From Erysipelotrichaceae bacterium (GTDB taxonomy: Bacteria; Bacillota_I; Bacilli_A; Erysipelotrichales; Erysipelotrichaceae): a DNA stretch of 17,615 nt. Below, in pieces: positions 4,002 through 8,135 of the stretch. The DNA is taken from positions 1 through 17,615 of the forward strand of contig JAEDOA010000017.1 of assembly GCA_016302195.1 (NCBI GenBank). Direction: 5' to 3'. The number at the start of each line of letters is the position of its first letter. Position 1 is the stretch's first letter. The translations under genes were made by a program, and so were the position numbers. Below the pieces are notes generated by a model. That model worked only from the letters and a program-made list of their open reading frames with translations, had not been told where the DNA came from and made no database searches.

Positions 4002-4023
4002 AACCTCAGACTAGTCTGAGGTT
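4002..4023. terminator. perfect 22-bp palindrome/hairpin (AACCTCAGACTAGTCTGAGGTT) at a convergent junction
   Basis: Perfect inverted repeat. It overlaps the last 3 codons and the stop of the minus-strand CDS 4011-4787. It is not followed by a strong T-run on the + strand. Confidence 0.5.
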
Positions 4024-4787
4024 ACTTCAACGGGCTTCCGCACTATAAATGAACTTGTTTCAAGTAATAAATCTTCAAGACATATTTTACTTAAATGAGT
4101 ATATGGTATTCTAATAATTGGGATATTGTTATCAAAACACCATTGATTTTTTATTCTATCATGTTCTTGTGTTTTATTGACTGGTTTCCAATTACTTGAA
4201 CTACTGATTTTATAGTGTTGTTCACCATCAAATTCAATTATATATTTATTATTAACATAAAAATCAAATTCAGCTTCTTTATTTGTATCTGGAAATATAC
4301 ACTTTGCATTTTTATATAAATATTGAAATTGAATACCAGCTTGATTTAATAAATTCATAATAATTGCTTCACCTGTTGATGCGGTTCGTTTATTTTTACA
4401 TTCATTACAATCAATTCTACGATTTGTTGTTAATGCGGTTAATTCAATAATATCAGTATTGCCGCAATCGCATTGGCATAACCAATTATAAGAATTTTGA
4501 CCTTTAGGTCTATCTAATCGTTTGATTGCTGTTAAATGTCCAAATTTTTGATTTGTAATATCTTTAGGAGCATTTCCTTTGGCAAAATGATTACCTTGCA
4601 TTATTTCTTTTTTAAGGCAACCACAAGATTTAACTCTACCGCCCCTTAATGCATCACTAGCAACTTCTACGATATTTCCACAATCACACTGACATTTCCA
4701 TACAATTTTACGATTTTTTCGTTTTTCAGTTTGTTCAATTACTGTTAAGCGATTATATTTATCACCTAATAAATTTAAAGCACTCAT
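4011..4787 (-). CDS. putative homing-endonuclease-like protein with two tandem Cys-rich zinc-ribbon repeats and a C-terminal Vsr/DUF559-like PD-(D/E)xK nuclease domain
   Basis: RBS AAGGAG 7 nt upstream of the ATG. It has two repeats 'W.C.CDCGN...(~15)...SCGC/CNEC'. The C-terminus 'FDFYVNNKYIIEFDGEQHYK...NNIPIIRIPYT' has the (D...E.DG.QH.K) arrangement typical of Vsr-like endonuclease folds. It is a paralog of 7407-8135. Confidence 0.6.
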   Translation of the reverse strand: MSALNLLGDKYNRLTVIEQTEKRKNRKIVWKCQCDCGNIVEVASDALRGGRVKSCGCLKKEIMQGNHFAKGNAPKDITNQKFGHLTAIKRLDRPKGQNSYNWLCQCDCGNTDIIELTALTTNRRIDCNECKNKRTASTGEAIIMNLLNQAGIQFQYLYKNAKCIFPDTNKEAEFDFYVNNKYIIEFDGEQHYKISSSSNWKPVNKTQEHDRIKNQWCFDNNIPIIRIPYTHLSKICLEDLLLETSSFIVRKPVEVTSD

Positions 4788-4802
4788 AATAATACTCCTT
4801 TC

Positions 4803-4830
4803 ATTCTATTATATATGAAAAATAGAATGG
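4803..4830. promoter_or_regulatory. inverted repeat (CATTCTAT-N12-ATAGAATG) immediately upstream of the RBS of minus-strand gene 4011-4787
   Basis: 8-bp arms with a 12-nt loop containing TATATA. It is an operator or 5'-UTR hairpin candidate in the divergent intergenic region shared with promoter copy 4. Confidence 0.35.
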
Positions 4831-7376: not shown

Positions 7377-7394
7377 TATAATATAAAATAAATT

Positions 7395-7432
7395 ATACCG
7401 AGTAGTTTAAACTACTCGGTATTTTGTTGTTT
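7395..7432. terminator. bidirectional rho-independent terminator between the convergent MVP-like gene and the minus-strand nuclease gene
   Basis: Perfect 28-bp inverted repeat ATACCGAGTAGTTT|AAACTACTCGGTAT, followed by TTTTGTTGTTT on the + strand and TTTATTTTATATTATATT on the other side. It overlaps the last 5 codons of CDS 7407-8135. Confidence 0.7.
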
Positions 7433-8135
7433 CTAATAATAAATCTTCAAGACATAAATCATCGTAATAAGTATATGGAATTCTTATTAAAGGAATGTTA
7501 TTATCTTTACAATATTCATTTTTAATTTTATCTTTTTTTGTAACATTTTTTAAATATTCTTCAGTACTCCAACCTCCAGTACTTTTAAAATGTTGGATAC
7601 CATCATATTCAATTAAATATTTATTATTAACATAAAAATCAAATCGTGGAGTGCTATTATTTTCATATTTAAAATTATCAAAAGTTTTTTCTCTTATAAA
7701 AGAAATATTGTTTAAAGTAAGAATATCTTTTATTTTTTCTTCTCCTTTGGATTTTGTAACACATCCACAAGATGTTGTATGGCCATTTCTTAATTTAGTT
7801 CCATCAACAATAAGTCTTGTATGATTTATACAATCACATTCACATTCCCAGTAAATATGGTCAGATTTAATACCTTCTTTTCTTCCATATTCTTTAATTA
7901 CTGTCAAATGATTATATTTTTTTCCCACTTCATTTTTAAAAGAATTATTTCTTTGTTTTCTTAAACATCCACAAGATTTAGTATGACCGCTTCTGAGATA
8001 ATAACCAAAAACAGTAACTTCATTTCCACAATCACATTTGCACTTCCAAAATGTTTTTCCATTTTTACTTTCTGCTCTTTCAATCACTTCTAAAGAACCA
8101 AATCTTTGTCCTGTTAAATCAATTAATTTACTCAT
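7407..8135 (-). CDS. putative homing-endonuclease-like protein, paralog of 4011-4787 (zinc-ribbon repeats plus Vsr-like PD-(D/E)xK domain)
   Basis: RBS GGAGGAAAAAA before the ATG. It shares 'WKCKCDCGNEV...SCGCL', a second repeat 'WECECDCINH...SCGCV', and the C-terminus 'RFDFYVNNKYLIEYDGIQHFK...NNIPLIRIPYT', about 60% identical to the other copy's C-terminal domain. Confidence 0.6.
   Translation of the reverse strand: MSKLIDLTGQRFGSLEVIERAESKNGKTFWKCKCDCGNEVTVFGYYLRSGHTKSCGCLRKQRNNSFKNEVGKKYNHLTVIKEYGRKEGIKSDHIYWECECDCINHTRLIVDGTKLRNGHTTSCGCVTKSKGEEKIKDILTLNNISFIREKTFDNFKYENNSTPRFDFYVNNKYLIEYDGIQHFKSTGGWSTEEYLKNVTKKDKIKNEYCKDNNIPLIRIPYTYYDDLCLEDLLLETTKYRVV

Follow-up and report, generated by a model that had tools for sequence, protein, structure and literature searches.

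Two Vsr-like nuclease genes beside a phage MVP-like gene are probably free-standing homing endonuclease genes at a resident landing zone

Introduction

The contig JAEDOA010000017.1 (assembly GCA_016302195.1, Erysipelotrichaceae bacterium) provides a stretch of 17,615 nt, here called the window, in which an MVP-like gene is bracketed by two related genes on the opposite strand, HEG1 and HEG2 (HEG, homing endonuclease gene). This layout raises the question of whether the three genes belong together. An earlier note, made from the sequence alone, had read the two flanking genes as free-standing homing endonucleases with zinc-ribbon repeats and a Vsr-like nuclease domain, and had offered two explanations for their placement: homing as the route by which the MVP cassette arrived or spreads, or a functional unit made up of all three genes. 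Comparison of the window with related phage loci led us to a different answer, to which we assign a probability of about 0.78: HEG1 and HEG2 would be independently mobile, free-standing homing endonuclease genes, and the MVP-like gene would be their resident landing zone rather than their cargo. The features on which this reading is built are collected in Table 1.

Table 1 Features of the MVP-like locus and its flanks (positions in the window).
Feature	Position	Strand	Description
HEG1	4011-4787	-	258 aa; two zinc-ribbon repeats at ~nt 4787-4368, predicted Vsr-like nuclease domain at ~nt 4367-4014
HEG2	7407-8135	-	242 aa; two zinc-ribbon repeats at ~nt 8135-7761, predicted Vsr-like nuclease domain at ~nt 7760-7410
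MVP-like gene	4950-7376	+	808 aa; Pfam MVP_shoulder 8e-19; presumed homology arm beside each cassette, outside the mobile units
HEG1 cassette	3982-4866	-	insertion relative to the empty alleles L056 and L060; unit of 917 bp including one promoter copy
Promoter-like repeat, copy 1, TTGATTTTTTCAAAAAATTATGATATAATAT	3950-3981	+	left border of the HEG1 cassette; points into HEG1 antisense
Promoter-like repeat, copy 2	4867-4897	+	bounds the HEG1 cassette on the right; probably drives the MVP-like gene
Extended -10 promoter-like element (AAAAATTATGATATAATAT, preceded by TTGATTTTTT)	313-331, 815-833, 3118-3136, 3962-3980, 4879-4897, 8380-8398, 9023-9041, 10670-10688	+	
Long hairpin	3981-4042	.	62 nt with a perfect core at 4000-4025; holds the HEG1 stop and last codons; no clean T-run
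HEG2 cassette	7396-8364	-	~970 bp: hairpin, HEG2, helix-turn-helix ORF, palindrome and minus-strand promoter region; absent from L056-L071
Bidirectional intrinsic-terminator hairpin	7395-7422	.	common to the convergent MVP-like gene and HEG2; part of the HEG2 cassette
55-aa helix-turn-helix ORF	8128-8295	-	stop overlaps the HEG2 start by 8 nt; weak helix-turn-helix matches (Pfam, PHROG)
Perfect 22-nt palindrome, AAAAATTGTCGCGACAATTTTT	8322-8343	.	just upstream of the helix-turn-helix ORF; core TTGTCGCGACAA conserved in L072
Cluster of mostly synonymous substitutions	7231-7286	+	HEG2-carrying and HEG2-less alleles differ; 7 changes in 17 nt at 7231-7247

Results

The coordinates first given for HEG1 and HEG2 proved right, and the open reading frame (ORF) list agrees that they flank the MVP-like gene, HEG1 divergently and HEG2 convergently. 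The two proteins are 41% identical over 241 residues (BLASTP, E 8e-50), a paralogy far beyond chance. They are the only long minus-strand genes in the window: the remaining minus-strand ORFs reach at most 115 aa and lie inside plus-strand genes, with the exception of a 55-aa helix-turn-helix (HTH) ORF next to HEG2, which the earlier note had overlooked. HEG1 is preceded by the ribosome-binding site (RBS) AAAGGAG, 8 nt 5' of its ATG, and the RBS of HEG2, GGAGG, lies inside the HTH ORF. Both genes are free-standing, being intergenic ORFs with their own RBS, and neither a group I intron nor any other Rfam family was found in the window. The GC content of the HEG regions is 24-28%, compared with 37-39% for the MVP-like gene.

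The evidence for mobility comes from relatives of the locus. A search of IMG/VR gave 46 phage loci with the MVP-like gene (identity 53-76%, contigs of up to 194 kb). The usual gene order was Thg1-MVP-RNA ligase, and a member of the HEG family lay within 6 kb of the MVP-like gene in two of the 46, without bracketing it in either. Closer relatives, with MVP proteins 90-100% identical, were obtained from metagenome assemblies, one of which (L070) is labelled pig gut by its record name. Where the identity of the MVP-like gene is 95% or more, the loci show all four states of occupancy, with precise borders. Both HEGs are present in the window and in L050; HEG1 alone is present in L075, at the same site and in a copy 98% identical; the HEG2 site alone is occupied in L047 and, by an alternative HEG, in L072 and L073; and both sites are empty in L056-L071, which include 24 contigs for one MVP allele. 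In the presence or absence comparison suggested in the earlier note, each HEG is polymorphic at a precise site, and the MVP-like gene is present throughout. On these distributions, the MVP-like gene is a fixed resident core gene of the phage group and not HEG cargo.

Paralogs of HEG1 and HEG2 are found at six or more other sites, also intergenic, in the relatives, in either orientation. Several of them are on the main coding strand (L047 25-774 and 6001-6741, L056 1143-1895, L060 15236-15985, L069 7204-7935), so the minus-strand orientation seen in the window is not a family trait. L047 additionally carries, at 10743-11174, a 143-aa derivative of the family that consists of zinc ribbons only. 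The HEG family has multiplied in this phage lineage. When positions 3000-9100 were searched by blastn against cultured phages, no close relative was found, and the only matches, all short, involved either the nuclease domain or one uncultured jumbo-phage MVP gene.

A second line of evidence is the local divergence between occupied alleles. The window and L047, both of which carry HEG2, differ by 4.59% over the MVP-like gene at 4950-7150 and by only 0.99% over 7151-8365, a stretch that takes in the HEG2 cassette and the final 226 nt of the MVP-like gene (Fisher p 1.4e-9). Between the window and L075, both of which carry HEG1, the cassette diverges by 2.7% and the initial 350 nt of the MVP-like gene by 2.6%, compared with 6.2% for the rest (p 1.7e-4). 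The central ~1.8 kb of the MVP-like gene lies outside these low-divergence tracts. Such troughs would be expected if the cassettes had recently moved between diverged genomes, dragging short flanks with them, and co-conversion of flanks is known for free-standing HEGs (PMC2988022, PMC2790892, PMC10448857). Collateral mobility, as proposed in the earlier note, holds to a limited degree, for the two ends of the MVP-like gene (~230 nt at the 3' end and ~350 nt at the 5' end), which look co-converted, but not for the gene as a whole. The cluster of mostly synonymous substitutions at 7231-7286, which falls in the co-converted tract at the 3' end of the MVP-like gene, could be a candidate recognition or immunity patch for HEG2, or simply a donor-linked polymorphism. 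Separately, the last ~95 nt of the MVP-like gene (window 7281-7376, compared with L060 9333-9418) exist in two unrelated versions among alleles that are otherwise 95% identical, one type ending proteins of 808/809 aa and the other proteins of 805 aa, with a recombination junction near the HEG2 site.

For the identity of the nuclease, the earlier note had proposed profile searches of the C-terminal domain and of the Cys repeats. The C-terminal half gave strong matches to phrog_9084 ('homing endonuclease') and phrog_7140 ('intron encoded nuclease'), with E values of 1e-18 to 1e-25 (1e-18 to 1e-37 for the PHROG matches overall). Its similarity to Pfam DUF2726, a family of the PD-(D/E)xK clan, stayed below the gathering threshold of 24.7 bits (HEG1 18.6, HEG2 17.3 bits), a threshold passed by the homolog P0022 with 26.4 bits. 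None of HEG1, HEG2, the HTH ORF and the MVP-like protein could be assigned to an NCBIfam family. The nuclease domain of I-MsaI, an intron ORF in a kayvirus terminase gene, is 45% identical over 105 aa (E 3e-22), and the 'homing nuclease' gp194 of phage 0305phi8-36 aligns to the domain with an hhalign probability of 94%. In the AF2 model (pLDDT 93.8), the nuclease domain is predicted to adopt a Vsr-like variant of the PD-(D/E)xK fold. Foldseek against BFVD returned more than 200 viral proteins at E <1e-3, with names such as 'Group I intron protein', 'Homing endonuclease', 'Restriction enzyme' and 'DUF2726' and, via the repeats, 'AP2 domain'.

The putative active site was read from an alignment of 48 sequences. 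Using HEG2 numbering, S129, G131, D166, F167, E176, D178, G179, H182, D202, K205 and the IPLIRIPY strand are invariant, and E132 is conserved in at least 90% of the 48 homologs. Of the Vsr/DUF559-type D...E.D...K spacing first read in the domain, the D, E and D are conserved but the 'K' is not, and the conserved set is instead E-D-(D)-H-D. The EDxHD family is defined by E170, D196, N208, H213 and D222 of I-Bth0305I, which correspond to E25, D51, H64, H69 and D97 of Vsr (PMC3239194). In HEG2, E132, D166, D178, H182 and D202 follow the same order, and the D-to-x spacing is 12 residues, as in I-Bth0305I. An hhalign comparison with I-Bth0305I (gp29 of phage 0305phi8-36) places GE on PE (E170), FDFY on VDFY (D196) and IEYDG on IEVNG (N208) in register, with a probability of 12% and E 0.0024; the H and the final D fall outside this alignment, and the agreement is at the level of motifs.

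Both proteins have two N-terminal Cys repeats, as described at the outset, but the exact pattern W.C.CDCGN-(15)-SCGC fits three of the four; repeat 2 of HEG1 ends in DCNEC, and repeat 2 of HEG2 reads CDCIN. The Cys ligands are invariant across the family alignment. Most homologs are 290-420 aa long because they carry three to five zinc-ribbon repeats, compared with two in HEG1 and HEG2. Profile searches matched the repeats to the middle of phrog_374 and phrog_559 (down to 2e-37) but to no significant Pfam family, the weak CapR and DUF5816 matches lying below the cut-offs. Both PHROGs are labelled 'HNH endonuclease'. We rejected this label for HEG1 and HEG2, since the two PHROGs are matched solely via their central zinc-ribbon region and the nuclease fold is predicted to be Vsr-like; neither protein contains an HNH/beta-beta-alpha-metal motif or has an HNH match in Pfam. 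The family itself is very large. A protein database yielded 7279 homolog clusters (90% identity) at E <=1e-3, and tblastn found the family in 422 cultured-phage records, mostly of Staphylococcus, Enterococcus, Streptococcus and Bacillus phages, where it is annotated as hypothetical, 'HNH endonuclease' or 'homing endonuclease'. The HNH name is thus a widespread mislabelling of what is, by its predicted fold, a Vsr-like nuclease.

At the HEG1 site, empty alleles contain a 53-aa ORF followed by a single promoter-like element and the 5' untranslated region of the MVP-like gene. In the window, this element is doubled and HEG1 lies between the copies. The element, including its flanks, occurs eight times on the plus strand, where 0.21 copies would be expected, and its copies mark the borders of variable gene cassettes. 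Between the promoter copies, relatives carry an 81-aa lipoprotein-like ORF (L047), a 208-aa ORF with an HD_4 ORF (L057-59), a 139-aa ORF (L069-71) or nothing. Five alternative contents of the slot 5' of the MVP-like gene were counted in relatives. HEG1 occupies a cargo hot spot between duplicated promoter copies. Its 3' end is embedded in a perfect hairpin, as the earlier note had seen; the core is a 13+13 palindrome within a longer fold (dG -29.5/-35.1 kcal/mol, z -5.6/-7.2), and none of 200 shuffled sequences was as stable. One speculative role for it is that of a 3'-end or insulator structure facing the upstream promoter copy 1.

At the HEG2 site, the empty alleles (L056-L071) have 19-25 nt with a native terminator stem-loop in place of the cassette. 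The order there is the MVP stop codon, an A-run, the terminator GGGCGGGAG-AAAA-TCTCGCCC with its T-tract and, directly after it, the promoter of a 57-aa ORF. Homology of the window to these alleles ends at 7381-7395 and resumes at 8365 with 'CCCTTTATTTTTTT', which means that a cassette of ~970 bp has replaced the native stem-loop. The right border of this cassette coincides with the terminator T-tract and the promoter of the next gene. The perfect hairpin reported at the HEG2 3' end is also real: its 12-bp stem and 4-nt loop have a T-run on either side, it is scored as an intrinsic terminator for each strand, and it is far stabler than shuffled controls (z -5.9/-5.0). The 3' end of HEG2 lies in this hairpin because the cassette brings a bidirectional terminator, which the two convergent genes now share. 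For this hairpin and that of HEG1 alike, the better reading is that of a terminator or 3'-end structure belonging to the cassette.

HEG2 is accompanied by the HTH ORF, which is gene-called in related contigs as well and is found wherever a HEG fills the HEG2 site. Because its stop codon overlaps the HEG2 start, the two genes are predicted to form a cotranscribed, translationally coupled operon. No canonical sigma-70 promoter was recognised for this operon; a -10 TATAAT is present, with no convincing -35 at the right spacing. The palindrome upstream of the HTH ORF was rejected as an RNA hairpin, its fold being not significant (z -1.3), and a DNA site is favoured. More speculatively, it is a candidate operator for the HTH protein, which would then be a probable autoregulator acting there. 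In L072 and L073, another member of the family, with only 47% identity to HEG2, fills the site, and even there the HTH ORF is 86% identical. Between these loci and the window, conservation is ~90% for the cassette ends, the hairpin and the HTH gene and lowest for the zinc-ribbon region (44-54% nucleotide identity); one HEG has replaced another at a single site. A tentative and rather doubtful extension would make the array (2-5 repeats, not curated in Pfam) a modular DNA-reading array that sets the specificity of the Vsr-like head, and the HEG2-site cassette a two-component unit in which the HTH protein autoregulates the endonuclease or helps it to find its target. The swap between the window and L072 would fit re-targeting by array exchange in such a scheme.

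Discussion

On the reading that we prefer, a HEG protein would combine an N-terminal zinc-ribbon array, presumed to recognise DNA, with a C-terminal Vsr-like nuclease of the EDxHD type, for which analogy suggests Mg-dependent cleavage by the E/D/H/D site. When a HEG-carrying and a HEG-less phage infect one cell, the enzyme would cut the HEG-less genome in or near the MVP-like gene or in the flanking intergenic region. The break would then be repaired by recombination with the HEG-carrying genome, which would bring in the cassette and, along with it, a few hundred bases of adjoining MVP sequence. The MVP-like gene would serve as conserved landing zone and homology arm, and each cassette would bring its own expression and termination signals. 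The identification as free-standing homing endonucleases, a part of the earlier note that is supported, draws on the precise presence and absence, the divergence troughs, the homing PHROGs, the resemblance to I-MsaI and the lack of an intron RNA in the window.

On this reading, HEG1 and HEG2 are Vsr-like, EDxHD-type free-standing homing endonucleases with a zinc-ribbon array. The prototype of the EDxHD enzymes is I-Bth0305I (PDB 3R3P; PMC3239194), whose family includes the free-standing phage enzyme Hef. Besides the order and spacing of the motif, these enzymes share with HEG1 and HEG2 an N-terminal DNA-binding region (DNA binding being predicted here) followed by a C-terminal nuclease, and they, too, are carried by phages, where both intron-encoded and free-standing examples are known. 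However, the N-terminus of I-Bth0305I consists of NUMOD2/HTH motifs rather than a tandem Cys-rich zinc-ribbon array, and the 'x' of the HEGs is an Asp within a DUF559-like E-x-D-G-x-x-H, with four residues from x to H instead of five. The nuclease domain is clearly homologous to those of I-MsaI, from the terminase large-subunit gene of Staphylococcus kayviruses, and of Herelleviridae ORFs annotated 'homing endonuclease' (PHROGs 9084 and 7140). I-MsaI differs in being intron-encoded and in having an N-terminal treble-clef zinc finger (DUF4379), and its own record gives the function as unknown. DUF559 shares the E.DG..H motif, and some members of the HEG family pass the DUF2726 threshold. Vsr, in contrast, is a repair enzyme with an intercalating Trp motif (GCFWH); the HEGs have neither, are fused to a zinc-ribbon array and are mobile.

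In their genomic behaviour, the two genes resemble Seg, Mob and Hef of T4-type phages (PMC2988022, PMC2790892), which are likewise intergenic beside conserved genes, sporadic in close relatives and accompanied by co-conversion of flanking markers. Replacement of one HEG by another at a single site, as with the alternative HEG in L072, is also known for mob, seg and hef. The nuclease class differs (GIY-YIG or HNH for Seg and Mob), as do the opposite-strand position of HEG1 and HEG2 and the partner HTH gene. The phage lineage is another one too, represented here by large phage contigs from metagenome assemblies, at least one of them labelled pig gut.

The strongest rival sees the cassettes as passive cargo, moved by homologous recombination between promoter or promoter-terminator repeats, with the nuclease used for phage competition or DNA degradation. 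This is unlikely, although much of the local architecture speaks for it. There is precedent in the PeSL cassettes of T4-type phages (PMC2839356, PMC4122927), in which short promoter-containing repeats border variable cassettes with alternative cargo per slot; they differ in repeat sequence and phage lineage, and recombination at the repeats is, in our case, deduced. The over-represented promoter-like repeat, the exact position of HEG1 between two of its copies, the varied cargo of that slot and the right border of the HEG2 cassette all agree with such a process. Against it, thousands of homologs show strict conservation of the catalytic residues, a sign of selection for nuclease activity; no promoter repeat forms the left border of the HEG2 cassette; and the troughs reach into MVP coding sequence, as expected of break-initiated co-conversion. 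Promoter-repeat recombination and homing are not mutually exclusive.

Several points weigh against the homing interpretation itself. A direct promoter duplication of ~30 bp flanks HEG1, and the same site holds unrelated, non-nuclease cargo elsewhere; recombination between the repeats could therefore move HEG1 without any endonuclease. The HEG1 trough is modest, and the occupancy sample is biased, several loci having been retrieved via the HEG itself. Neither 3r3p nor Vsr nor any other nuclease was recovered from the PDB by phmmer or hmmsearch, whether the query was the HEG2 sequence, the full-length profile A1 or the C-terminal profile A3, and a search with 0305phi8-36 gp194 likewise gave no nuclease match. 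The sequence link to the solved Vsr and I-Bth0305I structures is not statistically significant. Because these PDB searches were empty and the I-Bth0305I alignment is weak, we place the family on a branch of its own within the Vsr-like clade, with a motif (E.DG..H) nearer to that of DUF559/DUF2726. The case is a comparative one throughout: the analysis shows the fold (by model), the conserved catalytic residues, the occupancy states, the insertion borders and the troughs, and cleavage activity, target site and the roles of the HTH protein and of the hairpins are inferred.

A further possibility, which we regard as very improbable, is that HEG1 and HEG2 are domesticated, inactive DNA-binding regulators with a nuclease fold, or restriction-like nucleases directed at host or competitor DNA that do not promote their own inheritance. 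Names such as 'restriction enzyme' or 'transcriptional regulator' are attached to some homologs in the databases, L047 has its zinc-ribbon-only derivative, and HEG2 is paired with an HTH protein. However, the database names are labels only, the catalytic residues are invariant, and the sporadic, site-specific distribution among near-identical genomes, together with the local troughs, is the signature of a selfish element.

The least probable proposal is that of the earlier note, namely a functional unit of the MVP-like gene and two nucleases or an MVP cassette brought in or spread by them: the bracketing layout in the window and L050, the constant adjacency of HEG1 and HEG2 orthologs, when present, to the MVP-like gene and the apparent co-conversion of its short end segments are in its favour, but it is contradicted by the presence and absence data, as each HEG is present or absent in close relatives independently of the other and of the MVP-like gene, 44 of the 46 IMG/VR loci and L056-L071 have the gene without HEGs, its synteny is conserved, its centre is not in the low-divergence tracts, and family paralogs sit at unrelated loci.

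With HEG1 and HEG2 read as independent homing endonuclease genes, the vault-like gene should be studied as a resident phage core gene and not as mobile cargo. The metagenomic relatives offer a natural series, with every one of the four occupancy states, precise empty sites and recognisable co-conversion tracts, in which target-site mapping and homing tests would be straightforward. Groups that engineer endonucleases may take an interest in the zinc-ribbon array and the partner HTH gene.

Some further observations concern the MVP-like protein and other genes. The MVP-like protein has no PHROG match, and an exact look-up found it not on record; near-identical proteins were reached by homology search. 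As an MVP-shoulder/SPFH-like protein it has 6649 homologs at E <=1e-50 among scored candidates, on phage contigs that reach ~130-195 kb. The phage that encodes I-Bth0305I also holds, in gp194, a free-standing homolog of the HEG nuclease domain. Its Cys-rich paralogs gp9 and gp10 (L078 942-2225) are unlike the zinc-ribbon repeats of the HEGs, gp10 showing no similarity to them in a profile comparison. The window also carries a Thg1-like gene (tRNA-His guanylyltransferase family; 1828-2643, plus strand) that is variable in relatives: in L060-L065 it is cut down to short N- and C-terminal remnants (L060 4909-5105), and in L069 and L070 the Thg1 match is split and adjoins a LAGLIDADG_2 ORF (L069 122-2016). 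Finally, a third free-standing homing-endonuclease-like gene, of another class, lies at 16753-17343 on the plus strand of the window, with matches to GIY-YIG (3.6e-8) and NUMOD3 (1.4e-14).

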